NCBI RefSeq assembly: GCF_046105845.1
Contig: NZ_CP151004.1
Strand: one strand, 5' to 3'
Length of the DNA stretch: 64,000 bases
Source of the DNA: Escherichia coli
GTDB lineage: Bacteria > Pseudomonadota > Gammaproteobacteria > Enterobacterales > Enterobacteriaceae
Part shown: piece by piece, positions 7,763 to 37,097 of the stretch
Numbering within the stretch: the stretch's first letter is position 1
Layout: each line of letters begins with the position of its first letter
Notes under the pieces: generated by a model
Database searches by the model: none
Seen by the model: the letters and a program-made list of their open reading frames with translations, nothing else
What the model was told of the DNA's origin: nothing
Position numbers and translations under genes: made by a program

Positions 7763-9036
7763 AACCGATGCATATTGCAATGGCGCTGCTCTCTGCCGCT
7801 ATGTTCTTTGTGCTGGCGGGCGTCTTTATGGGCGTGCAACTGGAGCTGGATGGCACCAAACTGGTGGTCGACACGGCTTCAGACATCCGTTGGCAGTGGG
7901 TGTTTATCGGCACGGCGGTGGTCTTTTTCTTCCAGCTTTTGCGACCGGCTTTCCAGAAAGGGCTAAAAAGCGTTTCCGGGCCGAAGTTTATTCTGCCCGC
8001 GATTGATGGCTCCACGGTGAAGCAGAAACTCTTCCTCGTGGCGCTGCTGGTGCTTGCGGTGGCGTGGCCGTTTATGGTCTCACGCGGAACGGTGGATATC
8101 GCCACCCTGACCATGATCTACATTATCCTCGGCCTCGGGCTGAACGTGGTGGTAGGGCTTTCCGGCCTGCTGGTGCTGGGGTACGGTGGCTTTTACGCCA
8201 TCGGCGCTTACACCTTTGCGCTGCTCAATCACTATTACGGTCTGGGGTTCTGGACCTGTCTGCCTATTGCCGGGTTAATGGCAGCGGCGGCGGGCTTCCT
8301 GCTCGGCTTCCCGGTGTTGCGTTTACGTGGCGACTATCTGGCGATCGTTACCCTCGGTTTCGGCGAAATTGTGCGCATATTGCTGCTCAATAACACTGAA
8401 ATCACCGGCGGCCCGAACGGAATCAGTCAGATCCCGAAACCGACGCTCTTCGGACTCGAGTTCAGCCGTACCGCCCGTGAAGGCGGCTGGGATACGTTCA
8501 GTAATTTCTTTGGCCTGAAATACGATCCCTCCGATCGTGTCATCTTCCTCTACCTGGTGGCGTTGCTGCTGGTGGTGCTAAGCCTGTTTGTCATTAACCG
8601 CCTGCTGCGGATGCCGCTGGGGCGTGCGTGGGAAGCGTTGCGTGAAGACGAGATCGCCTGCCGTTCGCTGGGTTTAAGCCCGCGTCGTATCAAGCTGACC
8701 GCTTTTACCATCAGTGCCGCGTTTGCCGGTTTTGCCGGAACGCTGTTTGCTGCGCGCCAGGGCTTTGTCAGCCCGGAATCCTTCACCTTTGCTGAATCGG
8801 CGTTTGTACTGGCGATAGTGGTGCTCGGCGGTATGGGATCGCAGTTTGCGGTGATTCTGGCGGCTGTTCTGCTGGTGGTGTCGCGCGAATTGATGCGTGA
8901 TTTCAACGAATACAGCATGTTAATGCTCGGTGGTTTGATGGTGCTGATGATGATCTGGCGTCCGCAGGGCTTGCTGCCCATGACGCGCCCGCAACTCAAG
9001 CTGAAAAACGGCGCAGCGAAAGGAGAGCAGGCATGA
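7759..9036 (+). CDS. livM: Branched-chain amino acid ABC transporter permease LivM
   Basis: 425 aa membrane protein. ATGA start/stop overlap with livH. Confidence 0.95.
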
Positions 9037-9801: not shown

Positions 9802-10515
9802 ATGGAAAAAGTCATGTTGTCCTTTGACAAAGTCAGCGCCCACTACGGCAAAATCCAGGCGCTGCATGAGGTGAGCCTGCATATCAATCAGGGCGAGATT
9901 GTCACCCTGATTGGCGCGAACGGGGCGGGGAAAACCACCTTGCTCGGCACGTTATGCGGCGACCCACGCGCCACCAGCGGGCGAATTGTGTTTGATGATA
10001 AAGACATTACCGACTGGCAGACGGCGAAAATCATGCGCGAAGCGGTAGCGATTGTCCCGGAAGGGCGTCGCGTCTTCTCGCGCATGACGGTGGAAGAGAA
10101 TCTGGCGATGGGCGGCTTTTTTGCTGAACGCGACCAGTTCCAGGAGCGCATAAAGTGGGTGTATGAACTGTTTCCGCGTCTCCATGAACGCCGTGTTCAG
10201 CGGGCGGGAACCATGTCCGGCGGTGAGCAGCAGATGCTGGCGATTGGGCGCGCGCTGATGAGCAATCCGCGTTTATTGTTGCTTGATGAGCCATCGCTCG
10301 GTCTTGCGCCGATTATCATCCAGCAGATTTTCGACACCATCGAGCAGCTGCGCGAGCAGGGGATGACCATCTTCCTCGTCGAGCAGAACGCCAACCAGGC
10401 GCTGAAGCTCGCTGATCGCGGCTACGTGCTGGAAAACGGTCATGTGGTGCTCTCCGATACCGGCGATGCGCTGCTGGCAAACGAAGCGGTGAGAAGTGCG
10501 TATTTAGGCGGGTAA
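9802..10515 (+). CDS. livF: Branched-chain amino acid ABC transporter ATPase LivF
   Basis: 237 aa from ATG 9802 (MEKVMLSF...). Walker A GANGAGKTT, signature MSGGEQQM. Confidence 0.94.
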   Translation: MEKVMLSFDKVSAHYGKIQALHEVSLHINQGEIVTLIGANGAGKTTLLGTLCGDPRATSGRIVFDDKDITDWQTAKIMREAVAIVPEGRRVFSRMTVEENLAMGGFFAERDQFQERIKWVYELFPRLHERRVQRAGTMSGGEQQMLAIGRALMSNPRLLLLDEPSLGLAPIIIQQIFDTIEQLREQGMTIFLVEQNANQALKLADRGYVLENGHVVLSDTGDALLANEAVRSAYLGG

Positions 10516-10576
10516 TAACACGTTGATTGATAAGGAGTCAAAAGACTCCTTTGAGACAGGTTACAAATGTAAAATT

Positions 10577-10676
10577 GCCTGATGCGCTGCGCTTATCAGG
10601 CCTACTGGATGAGTTGCAATATATTGAATTTGCACGATCTTGTAGGCCGGATAAGGCATTTACGCCGCATCCGGCA
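10577..10676. repeat. REP/BIME element downstream of livF
   Basis: gcctgatgcgctgcgcttatcaggcctac and tgtaggccggataaggcatttacgccgcatccggca, two REP units in inverted orientation. Confidence 0.85.
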
Positions 10677-10776
10677 TGAAACGATGAGCAATCTGTAGAG
10701 TTTGATTCAGACCTTCTATTTTTCCCGCTTATCCGTGCCCCATCTCCCATTTTCCCTCACCCGTACCGTCACCGCC

Positions 10777-10794
10777 TTGTCATCTTTCTGACAC
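10777..10794 (+). promoter_or_regulatory. Candidate Pho box (PhoB site) in the ugpB promoter region
   Basis: TTGTCAT-N4-CTGACAC resembles the CTGTCAT direct-repeat PhoB consensus. The ugp operon is a known Pho regulon member. Confidence 0.5.
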
Positions 10795-10912
10795 CTTACT
10801 ATCTTACAAATGTAACAAAAAGGTTATTTTTCTGTAATTCGAGCATGTCATGTTACCCCGCGAGCATAAAACGCGTGAATTCGCGCATTCGGTACAACAA
10901 GAGAGATAAACG

Positions 10913-12229
10913 ATGAAACCGTTACATTATACAGCTTCAGCACTGGCGCTCGGACTGGCGTTAATGGGGAATGCACAGGCAGTGACGACCATTCCGTTCT
11001 GGCATTCTATGGAAGGGGAACTGGGTAAAGAGGTGGATTCTCTTGCCCAACGTTTTAACGCCGAAAACCCGGATTACAAAATTGTACCGACCTATAAAGG
11101 CAACTACGAACAGAATTTAAGCGCGGGGATTGCCGCATTTCGTACCGGCAACGCTCCGGCTATTTTGCAGGTTTATGAAGTTGGCACCGCCACCATGATG
11201 GCGTCGAAAGCCATTAAACCGGTATATGACGTGTTTAAAGAGGCGGGGATTCAGTTCGATGAGTCGCAGTTTGTGCCGACGGTTTCAGGCTACTACTCCG
11301 ACAGCAAAACCGGCCACTTACTCTCCCAGCCGTTCAATAGCTCGACTCCTGTTCTCTATTACAACAAAGACGCCTTCAAGAAAGCGGGGTTAGACCCGGA
11401 ACAGCCGCCGAAAACTTGGCAGGATCTGGCGGACTATGCCGCAAAACTGAAAGCCTCCGGCATGAAGTGCGGCTACGCCAGCGGCTGGCAGGGCTGGATC
11501 CAACTGGAAAACTTTAGCGCCTGGAACGGTCTGCCGTTTGCCAGCAAAAACAACGGCTTTGACGGCACGGACGCGGTGCTGGAGTTCAACAAGCCGGAGC
11601 AGGTGAAACACATCGCCATGCTCGAAGAGATGAACAAGAAGGGCGACTTCAGCTACGTCGGTCGTAAGGATGAATCCACCGAGAAGTTCTATAACGGTGA
11701 TTGCGCGATGACCACCGCCTCTTCTGGTTCTCTTGCCAATATTCGTGAGTACGCCAAATTTAACTACGGCGTAGGCATGATGCCTTACGACGCTGACGCG
11801 AAAGATGCGCCACAAAACGCCATTATCGGCGGAGCCAGCCTGTGGGTAATGCAGGGTAAAGATAAAGAAACTTATACGGGTGTGGCGAAGTTCCTCGACT
11901 TCCTCGCGAAGCCAGAAAACGCTGCCGAGTGGCATCAGAAAACTGGTTATCTGCCAATCACCAAAGCGGCGTATGACCTGACCCGTGAGCAAGGCTTTTA
12001 TGAGAAAAACCCAGGTGCGGATACCGCGACGCGTCAGATGCTGAATAAGCCGCCGTTACCGTTCACCAAAGGGCTGCGTCTGGGCAACATGCCGCAGATC
12101 CGCGTGATTGTGGATGAAGAGCTGGAGAGCGTGTGGACCGGTAAGAAGACACCACAGCAGGCACTGGATACCGCCGTTGAGCGTGGGAACCAGTTACTGC
12201 GCCGCTTTGAGCAGTCTACGAAGTCTTAA
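10913..12229 (+). CDS. ugpB: sn-Glycerol-3-phosphate periplasmic binding protein UgpB
   Basis: 438 aa with signal peptide. Followed by ugpAEC. Confidence 0.95.
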
Positions 12230-12235
12230 TTCTCT

Positions 12236-12385
12236 TACCCTCACCCTAACCCTCTCCCAAAGGGAGAGGGGACCGATCGGCGTGGTATCCAGGTGCCGTG
12301 TCGGTTTGCAACTTCGCTCGGTGGGAAAGTATGCACCGCCTTTCTCCCTCGCCCCTCTGGGGAGAGGGCCGGGGTGAGGGGATCA
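12236..12385. repeat. Long imperfect palindromic intergenic element between ugpB and ugpA
   Basis: ccctcaccctaaccctctcccaaagggagagggg on the left is mirrored on the right by ccctctggggagagggccggggtgagggg. The arms are inverted repeats of each other, with internal short hairpins. Confidence 0.55.
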
Positions 12386-12404
12386 CAACACGAAGAGTTT
12401 AACT

Positions 12405-13292
12405 ATGTCATCATCCCGTCCGGTGTTCCGCTCGCGCTGGCTGCCCTATTTGCTGGTCGCGCCGCAGCTCATCATCACCGTTATCTTTTTTATCTGGCCT
12501 GCGGGCGAAGCGTTGTGGTACTCGCTGCAAAGCGTCGATCCGTTTGGTTTCTCCAGCCAGTTTGTCGGCCTGGATAACTTCGTCACGCTGTTTCATGACA
12601 GCTACTATCTCGACTCCTTCTGGACGACGATAAAATTCAGCACCTTTGTCACCGTCAGTGGTTTGCTGGTGTCGCTGTTCTTTGCGGCGCTGGTGGAGTA
12701 CATCGTGCGCGGCAGCCGTTTCTATCAAACCTTGATGCTGCTGCCGTATGCCGTGGCTCCCGCCGTTGCCGCCGTATTGTGGATCTTCCTGTTTAACCCT
12801 GGTCGCGGGCTGATCACCCATTTTCTCGCTGAGTTCGGCTACGACTGGAACCACGCGCAAAACAGCGGTCAGGCGATGTTTCTGGTGGTGTTTGCCTCGG
12901 TGTGGAAGCAAATCAGCTACAACTTTCTGTTCTTCTATGCCGCGCTGCAATCCATTCCCCGTTCGTTGATCGAAGCCGCAGCCATCGACGGTGCAGGCCC
13001 GATTCGCCGCTTCTTTAAGATTGCGCTGCCGCTTATCGCTCCGGTGAGTTTCTTCCTGCTGGTGGTGAACCTGGTGTACGCCTTCTTCGACACCTTCCCG
13101 GTGATCGACGCCGCCACGTCCGGCGGGCCGGTTCAGGCCACCACGACGCTGATTTATAAGATTTACCGCGAAGGCTTTACCGGACTGGATCTGGCTTCGT
13201 CTGCCGCGCAGTCGGTGGTGTTGATGTTCCTCGTCATCGTGCTGACGGTGGTGCAGTTCCGCTATGTTGAAAGCAAGGTGCGTTACCAATGA
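12405..13292 (+). CDS. ugpA: sn-Glycerol-3-phosphate ABC transporter permease UgpA
   Basis: 295 aa membrane protein. Operon context. Confidence 0.95.
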
Positions 13293-14134
13293 TTGAGAAC
13301 CGTCCGTGGCTGACAATATTCAGCCATACCATGCTGATCCTCGGGATCGCGGTGATCCTCTTCCCGCTGTACGTGGCGTTTGTCGCGGCGACGCTGGATA
13401 AACAGGCCGTCTATGCCGCGCCGATGACGCTCATCCCCGGCACACATCTGCTGGAAAATATCCACAACATCTGGGTTAACGGGGTAGGTACGAATAGTGC
13501 GCCGTTCTGGCGGATGTTGCTTAACAGCTTTGTGATGGCGTTTAGCATTACGCTCGGCAAAATTACCGTCTCGATGCTCTCGGCATTTGCCATTGTCTGG
13601 TTTCGTTTTCCACTACGTAACCTCTTCTTCTGGATGATTTTTATCACTCTGATGTTGCCGGTTGAAGTGCGTATTTTCCCGACGGTGGAAGTCATCGCCA
13701 ACCTGAAGATGCTCGACAGCTACGCCGGTTTAACGCTGCCGCTGATGGCCTCGGCGACCGCCACGTTTCTTTTCCGCCAGTTCTTTATGACGCTGCCGGA
13801 TGAGCTGGTGGAAGCGGCGCGGATCGACGGTGCGTCACCAATGCGCTTCTTTTGCGACATCGTTTTTCCGCTCTCCAAAACTAATCTGGCGGCGCTGTTT
13901 GTGATCACCTTTATTTACGGCTGGAACCAGTATTTGTGGCCGTTGTTGATTATTACCGACGTGGATCTCGGCACCACCGTGGCGGGGATTAAAGGGATGA
14001 TCGCCACTGGCGAAGGCACCACGGAATGGAACTCGGTGATGGCGGCGATGTTGTTAACGCTGATCCCACCAGTAGTGATTGTTTTAGTGATGCAGCGTGC
14101 CTTCGTGCGCGGCCTGGTCGATAGTGAGAAATAA
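13289..14134 (+). CDS. ugpE: sn-Glycerol-3-phosphate ABC transporter permease UgpE
   Basis: 281 aa membrane protein. ATGA overlap with ugpA. Confidence 0.95.
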
Positions 14135-14135
14135 G

Positions 14136-15206
14136 ATGGCAGGACTGAAATTACAGGCAGTAACCAAAAGCTGGGATGGCAAAACCCAGGTCATTAAACC
14201 GCTGACCCTTGATGTGGCGGATGGCGAATTTATCGTGATGGTCGGGCCGTCTGGCTGCGGGAAATCGACGTTATTGCGAATGGTGGCCGGACTGGAGCGG
14301 GTGACGGAAGGCGATATCTGGATCAACGACCAGCGGGTGACCGAAATGGAGCCGAAAGATCGCGGGATTGCGATGGTGTTCCAGAACTACGCTCTCTACC
14401 CACATATGAGCGTCGAAGAGAACATGGCGTGGGGGCTGAAAATTCGCGGCATGGGCAAGCAGCAAATTGCCGAACGTGTTAAAGAAGCGGCGCGCATTCT
14501 GGAGCTGGACGGCCTGCTTAAGCGCCGCCCGCGTGAGCTATCTGGCGGTCAGCGTCAGCGTGTGGCGATGGGGCGTGCGATTGTGCGTGAGCCGGCAGTG
14601 TTCCTGTTTGATGAGCCGCTCTCTAACCTCGATGCCAAGTTGCGTGTGCAGATGCGTCTTGAACTGCAACAGCTGCACCGTCGCCTGAAAACGACTTCAC
14701 TCTACGTTACCCACGATCAGGTTGAAGCGATGACGCTCGCCCAGCGAGTAATGGTGATGAACGGCGGCGTTGCCGAACAGATTGGCACGCCAGTTGAAGT
14801 GTACGAAAAGCCCGCCAGCCTGTTTGTGGCGAGTTTTATCGGCAGTCCGGCGATGAATCTGCTGGCAGGGCGTGTGAATAACGAAGGCACGCATTTCGAA
14901 CTGGATGGCGGTATCGCGCTGCCGCTAAACGGTGGCTACCGTCAGTATGCTGGACGTAAAATGACTCTCGGCATTCGCCCGGAACATATAGCGCTAAGCT
15001 CGCAGGCAGAAGGTGGTGTGCCGCTGGTGATGGACACGCTGGAGATCCTCGGCGCAGATAATCTGGCGCACGGACGCTGGGGCGAACAGAAGCTGGTGGT
15101 GCGACTGGCGCATCAGGAGCGCCCGACGGCAGGCAGCACGCTGTGGCTGCATCTGCCGGAAAATCAGCTGCATCTTTTTGATGGTGAAACAGGACAACGA
15201 GTATGA
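14136..15206 (+). CDS. ugpC: sn-Glycerol-3-phosphate ABC transporter ATPase UgpC
   Basis: 356 aa from the internal ATG (MAGLKLQAV...). Walker [10 protein letters not shown], signature LSGGQRQR. Confidence 0.94.
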
Positions 15207-15946
15207 GTAACTGGCCTTATCCCCGCATCGTCGCCCATCGTGGCGGCGGTAAACTGGCCCCGGAAAACACCCTGGCGGCAATCGACGTGGGGGCAAAATA
15301 CGGTCATAAGATGATCGAATTTGACGCGAAGTTATCGAAAGATGGCGAGATCTTCCTGCTCCATGACGACAATCTCGAACGTACCAGCAACGGCTGGGGC
15401 GTCGCGGGTGAACTGAACTGGCAGGATTTACTGCGCGTGGATGCGGGCAGTTGGTACAGCAAAGCGTTTAAAGGTGAGCTGCTGCCGTTGCTTTCGCAGG
15501 TGGCGGAACGCTGTCGCGAACACGGGATGATGGCGAATATCGAAATCAAACCCACCACTGGCACCGGGCCATTAACGGGCAAAACGGTGGCGCTGGCGGC
15601 ACGCGAACTGTGGGCCGATATGACGCCGCCGCTGCTGTCATCGTTTGAGATTGATGCTTTAGAAGCTGCACAACAGGCTGCACCGGAACTGCCGCGCGGT
15701 TTGTTGTTGGATGAGTGGCGCGACGACTGGCGAGAATTGACCGCGCGGCTGGGCTGCGTCTCTATTCATCTCAATCATAAGTTGCTCGATAAAGCGCGAG
15801 TGATACAGTTGAAAGACGCCGGATTACGGATTCTGGTTTATACCGTCAATAAACCCCAGCGCGCGGCAGAGTTGCTGCGCTGGGGCGTGGATTGCATCTG
15901 CACCGATGCGATTGACGTGATTGGTCCGAACTTTACGGCCCAATAG
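15203..15946 (+). CDS. ugpQ: Glycerophosphodiester phosphodiesterase UgpQ
   Basis: 247 aa. Start motif HRGG. Last gene of the ugp operon. Confidence 0.94.
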
Positions 15947-16373
15947 TTTTCAACGGAATATCAGGCTGCGGCGTGCTGGGCTGATTCAGCATGTCGCCGT
16001 TTCTCCTCTCCGGCAACATATGCTGCTGATTCAACGAACTATCCGGATTACGGTTGCTGTTTAACATCCCGCCGTTGGTGTTGGGCAGCATTTGCTGCCG
16101 GGCGGGATTTCGCTCCCCCGGCTGTGACTGCAACACCCGCTGAGAATTATTGTTTATCTGGTTTTCTAAATGCTGTTGTTGCAACTGAGTTTGCGTTTTC
16201 AGTTGCTGATTCAGCATCCCTTTTTGCTGGATTTGCTGCGTTTGCATTTGAGTTTGCATCCGCTGCTGGCTGGGGATCTGATATCCCGGTTGGTTGGGGT
16301 TGTTCAGAGTATTAATGGGCTGTGCAAAGCCGACAAACGGCAGGAGTGCCGTAAGAATCAGAAGTCGTTTCAT
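15933..16373 (-). CDS. yhhA: Gln-rich secreted protein YhhA (DUF2756)
   Basis: 146 aa. Signal peptide [17 protein letters not shown] followed by a Q/N-rich low-complexity region. 3' end overlaps ugpQ by 14 bp, convergent. Confidence 0.85.
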
Positions 16374-16492
16374 CGCGTATCCTCCTCTGAAGATATTCTT
16401 TAAGTTTACTCCTTTCCTGCAATCATCAGGATTAATTCAGAGTTATATACCAGGCTTAGCTGGGGTTGCCCCTTAATCTCTGGAGAATAACG

Positions 16493-18238
16493 ATGATAAA
16501 ACCGACGTTTTTACGCCGGGTGGCCATTGCTGCTCTGTTCACAGGAAGTTGTTTTAGTACGGTAGCCGCGCCACCTGCGCCGTCTCCTGTTTCTTACGGC
16601 GTGGAGGAAGATGTCTTTCATCCGGTACGCGCGAAACAGGGGATGGTGGCGTCTGTAGATGCTACTGCCACTCAGGTGGGGGTGGATATCCTCAAGGAGG
16701 GCGGGAATGCCGTTGATGCCGCCGTGGCTGTGGGCTACGCGCTGGCGGTAACGCATCCGCAGGCAGGGAATCTGGGCGGTGGTGGTTTTATGCTGATCCG
16801 CTCGAAAAATGGCAATACCACTGCTATCGATTTCCGCGAAATGGCACCCGCCAAAGCGACCCGCGATATGTTCCTTGATGATCAGGGTAACCCGGACAGC
16901 AAAAAATCACTCACTTCGCATCTGGCTTCTGGTACGCCCGGTACGGTAGCAGGTTTCTCGCTGGCGTTGGATAAATACGGCACCATGCCGTTGAACAAAG
17001 TGGTGCAACCGGCGTTTAAACTGGCACGCGATGGTTTTATCGTTAACGACGCGTTGGCTGACGATCTCAAAACCTACGGTAGCGAAGTGCTGCCGAATCA
17101 CGAAAACAGCAAGGCTATCTTCTGGAAAGAGGGCGCGCCGCTGAAAAAGGGCGACAAGCTGGTGCAGGCGAACCTGGCAAAGAGCCTGGAGATGATTGCC
17201 GAAAACGGCCCGGACGAATTCTACAAAGGCACGATAGCGGAACAGATTGCCCAGGAGATGCAGAAAAACGGTGGCTTGATCACTAAAGAAGATTTAGCGG
17301 CGTATAAAGCGGTCGAGCGCACACCAATAAGCGGCGATTATCGCGGGTATCAGGTTTACTCCATGCCACCGCCATCTTCCGGCGGGATTCATATCGTGCA
17401 GATCCTCAATATCCTGGAAAACTTCGATATGCAGAAATACGGCTTTGGCAGCGCCGATGCGATGCAAGTCATGGCAGAAGCGGAGAAATACGCCTACGCC
17501 GACCGCTCGGAATATCTTGGCGACCCGGATTTTGTCAAAGTCCCGTGGCAGGCGCTGACCAATAAAGCCTATGCCAAATCTATTGCCGATCAAATCGATA
17601 TCAATAAAGCGAAGCCATCCAGCGAAATTCGCCCCGGCAAGCTTGCGCCTTATGAGAGTAATCAAACTACCCATTACTCAGTGGTGGATAAAGACGGCAA
17701 CGCGGTAGCGGTGACCTATACGCTGAACACCACCTTCGGTACGGGCATTGTCGCGGGTGATAGCGGTATTCTGCTTAATAACCAGATGGATGATTTCTCC
17801 GCCAAACCTGGCGTACCGAACGTTTACGGGCTGGTGGGCGGTGACGCCAACGCGGTCGGGCCGAATAAACGCCCGCTGTCGTCGATGTCCCCAACCATTG
17901 TGGTGAAAGACGGTAAAACCTGGCTGGTTACCGGTAGCCCTGGCGGGAGCCGGATTATCACCACCGTGCTGCAAATGGTAGTGAATAGTATCGATTATGG
18001 CATGAACGTCGCCGAAGCGACCAATGCGCCGCGTTTCCACCATCAGTGGTTGCCGGACGAGCTGCGTGTCGAAAAAGGGTTTAGCCCGGATACGATCAAG
18101 CTGCTGGAAGCAAAAGGTCAGAAAGTGGCGCTGAAAGAGGCGATGGGTAGTACACAAAGCATTATGGTTGGGCCTGACGGTGAGCTGTACGGTGCATCTG
18201 ACCCGCGCTCGGTAGATGATTTAACGGCGGGGTATTAA
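16493..18238 (+). CDS. ggt: Gamma-glutamyltranspeptidase
   Basis: 581 aa from ATG 16493 (MIKPTFLRR...). Signal peptide. Autoprocessing site and nucleophile context NQTTHYSVVD, GGG motif. Confidence 0.95.
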   Translation: MIKPTFLRRVAIAALFTGSCFSTVAAPPAPSPVSYGVEEDVFHPVRAKQGMVASVDATATQVGVDILKEGGNAVDAAVAVGYALAVTHPQAGNLGGGGFMLIRSKNGNTTAIDFREMAPAKATRDMFLDDQGNPDSKKSLTSHLASGTPGTVAGFSLALDKYGTMPLNKVVQPAFKLARDGFIVNDALADDLKTYGSEVLPNHENSKAIFWKEGAPLKKGDKLVQANLAKSLEMIAENGPDEFYKGTIAEQIAQEMQKNGGLITKEDLAAYKAVERTPISGDYRGYQVYSMPPPSSGGIHIVQILNILENFDMQKYGFGSADAMQVMAEAEKYAYADRSEYLGDPDFVKVPWQALTNKAYAKSIADQIDINKAKPSSEIRPGKLAPYESNQTTHYSVVDKDGNAVAVTYTLNTTFGTGIVAGDSGILLNNQMDDFSAKPGVPNVYGLVGGDANAVGPNKRPLSSMSPTIVVKDGKTWLVTGSPGGSRIITTVLQMVVNSIDYGMNVAEATNAPRFHHQWLPDELRVEKGFSPDTIKLLEAKGQKVALKEAMGSTQSIMVGPDGELYGASDPRSVDDLTAGY

Positions 18239-33324: not shown

Positions 33325-35790
<2,466 letters not shown>

Positions 35791-35807
35791 GTTCGCAAAG
35801 TGGTAAC

Positions 35808-35856
35808 TGCCGTGTGTTCTCTTAAAGCTATCGTTAATGGGCACACGGCATTTTTA
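35808..35856 (+). terminator. Terminator-like hairpin downstream of glgP
   Basis: tgccgtgtg ... cacacggca 9-bp stem followed by TTTTTAT. The loop is long (25 nt). Confidence 0.55.
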
Positions 35857-36272
35857 TATCAGATAAACGATATGTCATGACAATTTACAGACAGCATCGA
35901 TATATAATTCATATTTATTAATTTTTAATAATGATTCTCATCTGAGTATGTATCATACAATAAGCATTATAAATAACCAATAAATTATTTATTATATTTA
36001 TATATTGCCCCACTCTTCAGTTATCCTGTCTAAAATAAATCTCTTTGTTTTCAAATGACTGTATTTTTATATAAAGTCAATCATTGCGAGCATGGATTCT
36101 TTTAGTTATATTACCAAGCAGCTCATATAATATTTTCAAGCCATTCTATCTCTTATTTTTTCTGTGGTTAACTACACCAGCTTTATTCATTTAAATAATT
36201 TGACTTATTAAAGCTGAATGTAAAAATAATCGCCAATATTGCTTGGATTTTTTAACAAAAGGAAAGGTATAA

Positions 36273-36977
36273 ATGAAATTCAATCTATCTAATTTATCAG
36301 CAGTTTTACTCGCATCAGGTATGCTGATGTCAACTGCGGTAACCGCTGCGCCAGGCGATGCATCACAATTTGGTGGTGCGGATACAGACTGGAGCACCGT
36401 TGATTATCCAAAACTCACCGATATGGATAACAACACCGATGCGATGGGCGGAAACATCCGCTTTACTGGTCGTGTGGTTAAAGCGACGTGTAAGGTTGCT
36501 ACAGAATCGAAACAGATTGAAGTGGTACTGCCAGTCGTACCTTCTAACGCTTTCACGGGCATTGATACCGAAGCAACGGGCGCCAGTAACCAGACTGACT
36601 TCAACATTAAACTGACTGATTGTAGCAATACGGACAGTCAAAACATTGAATTTCGTTTTACTGGCGTAGCAGACGGTGCCAACCAGACGCTTGCCAATGA
36701 AGTGGAAGGAGCTACTGATGCTGATGGTACTGGCGAAGCGGGAGCTACAGGTGTAGGGATTCGTATTTATTCTAAAAACACGACAACTGATGGCCTGATT
36801 AAACTGAACACACAAACTCCCCAGGGGAGTAGTTCTTCAGCAGCCTACGTGATTCCTGGCGATGCTGCCACTCATGATTTTACTGCGGCATTTACCGCGG
36901 GCTATGCTCAGAACGGTAGTACCGTTGCACCAGGTCTGGTGAAATCGACGGCAAGTTTCGTCGTGCTGTACGAATAA
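36273..36977 (+). CDS. Fimbrial major subunit candidate (type-1/FimA-like pilin family, atypically long)
   Basis: 234 aa with signal peptide. Conserved pilin Cys pair (ATCKV ... LTDCSN). C-terminal beta-strand ASFVVLYE typical of chaperone-usher subunits. Strong SD AAGGAAAGG. First gene of the fimbrial island. Confidence 0.85.
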   Translation: MKFNLSNLSAVLLASGMLMSTAVTAAPGDASQFGGADTDWSTVDYPKLTDMDNNTDAMGGNIRFTGRVVKATCKVATESKQIEVVLPVVPSNAFTGIDTEATGASNQTDFNIKLTDCSNTDSQNIEFRFTGVADGANQTLANEVEGATDADGTGEAGATGVGIRIYSKNTTTDGLIKLNTQTPQGSSSSAAYVIPGDAATHDFTAAFTAGYAQNGSTVAPGLVKSTASFVVLYE

Positions 36978-36989
36978 TTACAGCAAGAT

Positions 36990-37023
36990 AATTTCAGGTT
37001 ACAGTTACTTGTAACCTGAAATT
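36990..37023 (+). terminator. Perfect 14-bp stem-loop after the major subunit gene (probable intra-operon attenuator)
   Basis: aatttcaggttaca-gttact-tgtaacctgaaatt, 12 nt after the stop codon. No strong U-tract follows, so partial termination or a stability element is more likely than a full terminator. Confidence 0.6.
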
Positions 37024-37097
37024 AATATTACATGTTTATTTGTAATAAATAGACATGCATCAGTAATTACAATTAATTTCATCTACAAGGATGCAGT

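Follow-up and report, generated by a model that had tools for sequence, protein, structure and literature searches.

A conserved acidic segment precedes the predicted donor strand of AufA, the major subunit of the Auf fimbriae of Escherichia coli

Introduction

The auf operon of Escherichia coli is located in the glpD..glgP region (PMC12928451), and in strain CFT073 the aufA gene is C_RS19945/c4214 (PMC5956150). Expression of the CFT073 allele interferes with RDAR morphology and with attachment to T24 cells; steric inhibition is put forward by the authors as a possible cause (PMC5956150). Uropathogenic E. coli show an enrichment of Auf fimbriae, which are without a known receptor, structure or clear phenotype. 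Buckles et al. reportedly saw amorphous surface material in 2004 and not classical rods; our literature searches returned nothing relevant on AufG or on amorphous Auf fimbriae. Known since 2004, the gene and the operon are a routine part of genome annotations, and the locus analysed here is no new system.

AufA can be compared with two described pilins. FimA of E. coli and Salmonella (PDB 5OH0, 8PSV, 6ERJ) has an incomplete Ig fold like that of AufA (Foldseek E = 7e-10, TM ~0.78 on the target), and both proteins possess the donor-strand motif GGxxxFxGxVV, the disulfide pair and a C-terminal Tyr. The two proteins differ in that they are only ~26% identical, that AufA has three longer loops, and that ahead of the GG of the motif FimA has no more than a handful of residues, compared with 33 in AufA. 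The second pilin is PapA of the P pilus rod. Its 'staple', residues 1-5, lies N-terminal to the donor strand, exits the groove on the exterior and contacts another subunit (PMC4715182, PMC5719983), reaching as far as subunit n+5 (PMC5719983). The staple is the nearest mechanistic precedent for a segment placed before the donor strand. It has 5 residues against the 33 of the AufA segment and there is no sequence similarity between them; a staple role for the latter is proposed by analogy.

We analysed a 64,000-nucleotide stretch of E. coli DNA (contig NZ_CP151004.1), referred to as the window. A first-pass annotation had drawn attention to an unusually long pilin gene in it, which is examined below together with its operon and its relatives.

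Results

Identification of the gene

The open reading frame (Table 1) begins with an ATG, with the Shine-Dalgarno sequence AAGGAAAGG 6 nt upstream, and the same 705-nt coding sequence is annotated by RefSeq in other strains. The 234-residue product matches the Pfam Fimbrial family (PF00419) over residues 62-233 with 77.3 bits, against a cut-off of 25.6. It aligns with WP_000671315.1, the 234-residue AufA of CFT073 and EcN, over all 234 residues and without gaps. In CFT073 this protein is the product of C_RS19945, a 705-nt gene adjoining glgP, and the identical protein is present in EcN. A database entry named 'Auf fimbriae major fimbrial subunit AufA' is 97% identical to the window protein. 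Because of the orthology to the CFT073 gene, the location between glgP and glpD and the 97%-identical named entry, the gene at 36273-36977 is aufA, which encodes the major subunit of the Auf chaperone-usher fimbriae. The first-pass annotation had called it a putative major pilin; the PF00419 match, the FimA-like fold described below and the orthology to AufA bear this out.

AufA does not reach the cut-off of any named NCBIfam equivalog. The best scores are 61.9 bits against 221 for LpfA and 53.3 against 140 for FimA, and FimI, BcfA and others are missed likewise. This fits the view of Auf as an isolated lineage of subunits.

The features typical of the family were located in a 99-sequence alignment. 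C73, C117 and G221 are invariant, the penultimate Y233 is at least 90% conserved, and the donor-strand glycines G60 and G66 fall on near-invariant family columns; C73 and C117 occupy the position of the conserved disulfide pair. A Sec signal peptide at residues 1-25 could be read directly from the sequence, with cleavage after either A25 or A22.

Table 1. Features of aufA and of the surrounding auf operon; positions refer to the window
Feature	Position	Strand	Basis
glgP-aufA intergenic region, AT-rich, presumed auf promoter/regulatory region	35791..36272	+	GC 0.37-0.40 vs ~0.52 in the flanks
aufA, Auf fimbrial major subunit precursor (234 aa)	36273..36977	+	ORF; Pfam; 85% identity to CFT073/EcN AufA
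Predicted Sec signal peptide, residues 1-25 (MKFNLSNLSAVLLASGMLMSTAVTA), cut after A25, possibly A22	36273..36347	+	K2, hydrophobic core, V-T-A before A26, read by eye; dN/dS 0-0.34
Auf-specific extension before the donor strand, residues 26-58, net charge ~-6	36348..36446	+	Conservation, dN/dS, profile search; pLDDT 30-53
Predicted donor strand (Nte), residues 59-70, GGNIRFTGRVVK	36447..36482	+	PSSM, PDB-sequence alignment, tandem AF2 model
Acidic Gly/Thr/Asp loop, residues 143-157 (EVEGATDADGTGEAG), ~8 longer than the family median	36699..36743	+	Spacing, orthologue conservation; pLDDT 83-88
Third lengthened region, residues 168-200, ~12 longer than the family median	36774..36872	+	I165-F203 spacing 37 vs median 25
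Perfect 16-bp stem-loop, 12 nt past the aufA stop codon	36989..37024	+	-19.3 kcal/mol, z = -5.4
aufB, PapD-like periplasmic chaperone	37098..37850	+	Pfam PapD_N, PapD_C
aufC, outer-membrane usher	37892..40483	+	Pfam PapC_N, Usher (661.7 bits), PapC_C
aufD, minor pilin; RefSeq start equivalent to 40513	40474..41046	+	Pfam Fimbrial; closest NCBIfam model FimF-like
aufE, minor pilin	41054..41578	+	Pfam Fimbrial
aufF, second PapD-like chaperone	41520..42320	+	Pfam PapD_N, PapD_C
aufG, two-domain tip adhesin candidate, 383-aa ORF	42313..43464	+	Pfam Fimbrial only over 225-383; partial NCBIfam FimH and LpfD matches

The operon and its surroundings

The gene order between glgP and glpD is aufABCDEFG, which corresponds to a pilin, a chaperone, an usher, two pilins, a second chaperone and an adhesin candidate. 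The GC content of the block is ~40%, compared with ~52% in the glgP and glpD flanks. A promoter consensus scan of the intergenic region in front of aufA yielded matches that were not above chance. The presence of two PapD-like chaperones, AufB and AufF, may matter for the handling of a major subunit with an unusual N-terminus.

The stem-loop that follows aufA is kept, with compensatory changes, in the EcN and Citrobacter freundii loci. It probably sets subunit stoichiometry through transcript stability or attenuation, as is the case after the major-subunit genes of fimbrial operons.

The CFT073 locus has the same glgP-glpD site, the same seven-gene operon and an AufA of 234 residues with the same extension and loops. 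The window differs from it in carrying the other, strongly diverged allele, with 76-78% nucleotide identity, and in being without three extra genes between aufG and glpD. In the CFT073/EcN allele these genes are intact and encode a YbbD-family protein and two hypothetical proteins; in the window the spacer (43465-43969) holds only a short remnant, which in close relatives is annotated as a frameshifted partial hypothetical gene. The aufG gene of CFT073 (C_RS19915; 2460-3590 of the retrieved CFT073 locus) has an internal stop and is annotated as a pseudogene, and the gene is intact in EcN and in the window. The loss of aufG could help to explain why an Auf adhesion phenotype was not found in CFT073.

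Alleles and distribution

We found aufA in 787 of 5,426 complete E. coli genomes, with all copies on the chromosome. The window-type allele (>95% nucleotide identity) is present in 228 of the 5,426 genomes and the CFT073/B2-type allele (~78%) in 558. The two alleles of the auf island occupy the same site and have ~76% nucleotide identity over 8.5 kb (window positions 35000-43493 compared), with dS ~3 in the aufA core. Over the first 120 nt of aufA the alleles reach 90-92% identity, suggesting either recombination that fades with distance from the conserved glgP flank or a constraint acting on the 5' end of the mRNA. The stretch of aufA that differs most from the B2 allele is nt 541-600, with 53% nucleotide identity.

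Outside E. coli, proteins from E. fergusonii and cryptic Escherichia are 94-97% identical to the window-type AufA. Citrobacter freundii has a 233-residue AufA with 77% identity, and a metagenomic orthologue has 71%. The C. freundii gene belongs to a complete seven-gene auf operon (10001-17105 of the retrieved locus) at another chromosomal site, beside cob/cbi genes and an ABC transporter; this difference in location indicates horizontal movement of the island. The distribution given here was drawn from cluster members and from the E. coli genomes. A taxonomic survey of GTDB species representatives for auf loci gave 36 pattern matches, none of which was confirmed. When 1.84 billion cluster representatives were searched with HMMER, Auf appeared as one cluster at 50% identity plus fragments, and the next full-length relative had an E-value of 4e-11.

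Where AufA is longer than other pilins

The 95 nearest non-Auf representatives of the family have a median length of 182 residues, which AufA exceeds by ~52, so that the excess of about 50 residues over FimA-type pilins noted in the first-pass annotation stands. In these relatives the first conserved Cys is found at a median precursor position of 42, against 73 in AufA. The excess is split over four places: ~31 residues precede the donor strand, 4 lie between the two cysteines, ~8 are in the F129-A158 loop and ~12 are in the I165-F203 region.

The peptide APGDASQFGGADTDWSTVDYPKLTDMDNNTDAM corresponds exactly to residues 26-58 and EVEGATDADGTGEAGATGVG to residues 143-162. About 40 mostly acidic residues had been reported in front of the conserved motif. 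An acidic extension is indeed present there; it comprises 33 residues, or at most 36 if the signal peptide is cut after A22, and only 7 of the 33 are Asp. Besides these, it contains 1 Lys and the conserved aromatics F33, W40 and Y45.

The same annotation had described a low-complexity stretch inserted in the body of the protein and had suggested that it might be a variable loop on the surface. The F129-A158 spacing is 28 compared with a family median of 20, which confirms an insertion of ~8 residues. The terminal ATGVG of the Gly/Thr/Asp stretch belongs to the family-wide motif AxGVGI. The loop is kept among orthologues as NEVEGxxDADxxGxxGATGVG, and both it and the N-terminal segment are under purifying selection and largely invariant in orthologues. 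The idea of a variable region was thus not borne out, and a hypervariable antigenic loop is not what the Gly/Thr/Asp stretch represents. Among orthologues AufA varies most at residues 180-200, inside the third lengthened region, where the AF2 pLDDT dips to 67 at residues 181-190.

Conservation of the N-terminal extension

We aligned nine AufA orthologues from E. coli, E. fergusonii, cryptic Escherichia, Citrobacter freundii and one metagenomic source. In this set 15 of the 33 extension positions are invariant (A26, D29, F33, G34, G35, D37, W40, T42, Y45, P46, T49, D50, D52, N54 and M58), and the segment can be summarised by the motif FGxGxDxxWxTx[DE]YPx[LI]TD[MI]Dx N xx x M. The Nei-Gojobori estimates for codons 26-58 in four orthologues give dN/dS = 0.06-0.39 with dS of 0.6-3.4, where synonymous sites are near saturation. 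These sequence comparisons indicate that the extension is translated and constrained by purifying selection.

No non-Auf protein aligns to profile positions 26-53 in the HMMER search of 1.84 billion cluster representatives, where only Auf fragments cover this region; the extension is on this ground Auf-specific. In the non-Auf matches of the same search the donor strand starts directly after the signal peptide. The isolated 35-mer of the extension has no Pfam or PDB match even at E = 10. It also seems to be undescribed, since no description was found in the accessible literature, a body of work that does not include Buckles et al. 2004. The possibility had been raised that the extension is a common feature of a described pilin subfamily. 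It is constant in all AufA orthologues and is to that extent a family trait, that of a pilin with an established name; a publication describing the extension was not found in the accessible literature.

Other pilins with additional residues in this place do occur. In the major pilins P0035 (220 aa), P0093 and P0044, an additional stretch of ~20-27 residues that is rich in Gly, Thr, Asp and Ser separates the signal peptide from GxxxFxGxV. These extensions differ from that of AufA in being shorter and unrelated and in having no W/Y-P/TDxD motif; none of these proteins has been characterised, and their sources are metagenomic or unnamed. Within the sample, no genuine pre-donor-strand extension is longer than that of AufA. 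One 220-residue pilin of the P0147/P0035 family (8001-8663 of its locus), with a Gly/Thr/Ser-rich extension of ~27 residues, is encoded by the first gene of a five-gene chaperone-usher operon, near genes for a TbpB/HphA-like protein and a TonB receptor. Because that extension is unrelated to the one in AufA, pre-donor-strand extensions have arisen more than once.

Position of the donor strand

We built a 12-column donor-strand PSSM from the 95 non-Auf relatives and scanned AufA with it. Residues 59-70 score +26.8 bits. The best window that lies wholly within the extension scores -15.9 bits, a value that shuffled extensions also reach (mean -20.1, 99th percentile -5.1). In phmmer alignments with PDB sequences, AufA residues 54-57 are matched to residues 5-9 of mature FimI and of Salmonella FimA, and G59 falls close to residue 10 of these FimA and FimI chains. 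The GxxxFxGxV motif is thus itself the donor strand, offset by 33 residues from the mature N-terminus and otherwise normal. This qualifies the first-pass view that the donor strand is not where it normally lies: the strand is displaced from the mature N-terminus, and in every other respect it is an ordinary strand at residues 59-70.

The AF2 model of the native precursor has a FimA-like core, with pLDDT >90 over most of residues 71-234, and leaves residues 1-60 unstructured at pLDDT ~50. Its best PDB matches in Foldseek are FimA subunits in type 1 pilus rods. A second model was made of a tandem construct consisting of the core (71-234), a linker, the mature protein (26-234), a second linker and residues 26-72; its alignment was made of matching constructs of 43 homologues. 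Residues 59-69 are coil in the monomer model and become an 11-residue β strand in both copies of the tandem model, with a block-mean pLDDT of 83-89. From this gain of strand and confidence we infer that residues 59-69 would insert into the groove of the neighbouring subunit. The two copies of the extension stay at pLDDT 30-43, so that the model gives no indication of the extension acting as the donor strand, a role that had been proposed for it. The 'disordered' extension in these models may merely reflect a lack of information, as only four sequences cover it in the AF2 alignment.

Discussion

Our analysis suggests that AufA is a canonical pilin with a conserved appendage in front of its donor strand. 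We consider it probable, at roughly 0.6, that AufA assembles by canonical donor-strand exchange through residues 59-70 and displays the acidic tail on the exterior of the fibre, as a coat or docking element. On this reading, AufA would be exported and bound by AufB (or AufF) before the usher AufC polymerises it through ordinary donor-strand exchange, which is by far the likeliest mode of assembly because all canonical pilin determinants are present. The extension would take no part as a strand. By analogy with the PapA staple, which likewise precedes the donor strand, it would emerge outside the Auf fibre at every subunit junction, where it could build up a dense coat, negatively charged and for the most part flexible. 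The conserved aromatic and acidic motif would probably dock on a neighbouring subunit, as an enlarged PapA-like 'staple', or else set the surface properties of the fibre. A bulky, charged coat fits the reported interference with RDAR morphology and T24-cell attachment. An argument against this reading is that the conservation of F33, W40, Y45-P46 and TDxD exceeds the needs of a purely flexible charged brush.

Two alternatives concern the reality of the extension and its place in assembly. In-frame Met codons at positions 51 and 58 would allow translation to start downstream and give a pilin of normal length, as the first-pass annotation had considered. Pilins need export, and such a pilin could not be exported, since the sole signal peptide of the protein, residues 1-25 with a strong Shine-Dalgarno sequence in front, precedes the extension. 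Codons 26-58 show purifying selection against a near-saturated synonymous background, with dN/dS well below 1, and length and frame are kept in all orthologues, Citrobacter included. A start at M51 or M58 is excluded on these grounds, and the chance that the extension is an annotation artefact is negligible. Only marginally less improbable is that the extension is, or contains, the functional donor strand and that assembly is unusual. It does sit at the mature N-terminus, the usual place of a donor strand. Yet all windows in residues 26-58 score -15.9 bits or lower, no better than shuffled sequences, against +26.8 for residues 59-70; the segment contains Pro46 and has no alternating hydrophobic-Gly pattern; and AF2 uses residues 59-69. 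We reject this role from the PSSM scan and the tandem model. The suggestion of an unusual assembly mechanism, which had been attached to the first description of the gene, finds no support either, as G60, G66, C73-C117, G221 and Y233 are all in place and both the PSSM and AF2 favour residues 59-70.

The other two alternatives accept the extension and assign it a more specific task; both are unlikely, though well above the preceding pair. One is a version of the preferred reading, in which T49-D50-x-D52-x-N54 of the extension and D149-A-D151-x-[ST]-G154 of the body loop would bind Ca2+ across the subunit junction and lock neighbouring subunits together. Loops of the DxDxxG type are common Ca2+ sites. 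The extension and the body loop are acidic additions specific to Auf, each conserved at exactly these Asp, Asn and Gly positions, and two acidic surfaces would otherwise repel each other if brought side by side. Against a metal-bridged staple, neither motif is a canonical EF-hand and both are without a Glu at position 12, the extension matches nothing in Pfam or the PDB even at the permissive E-value used, and AF2 does not order it. With about the same low probability, the extension would do its work in the periplasm and have no role on the finished fibre: it could delay premature self-polymerisation, direct AufA to AufB/AufF or the usher, or serve as a propeptide for later trimming. The operon encodes two chaperones, and the extension is conserved yet predicted to be unstructured alone, which is typical of short binding motifs. 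Neither propeptides nor chaperone-targeting tails are known to us from chaperone-usher pilins, however; related two-chaperone operons have major subunits without an extension, in which the donor strand comes right after the signal peptide, and the island holds no protease gene.

Display of the tail on the fibre exterior, the reading that we prefer, leaves our knowledge of chaperone-usher assembly unchanged. The conserved 33-residue tail is nevertheless a lead for structure-function studies, and it might explain the steric or anti-adhesive effects of Auf expression. More tentatively, and with odds that we put clearly below even, the acidic tail, possibly together with the DADxxG loop, could be a functional module carried by every subunit, either a metal-dependent staple that changes the mechanics of the fibre or a polyanionic brush with an anti-adhesive or shielding role. 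The brush, if real, would explain the lowered cell attachment, the altered RDAR morphology and the failure so far to find an adhesion phenotype. Either module, if real, would place this appendage in a new functional class among the major pilins of chaperone-usher systems.
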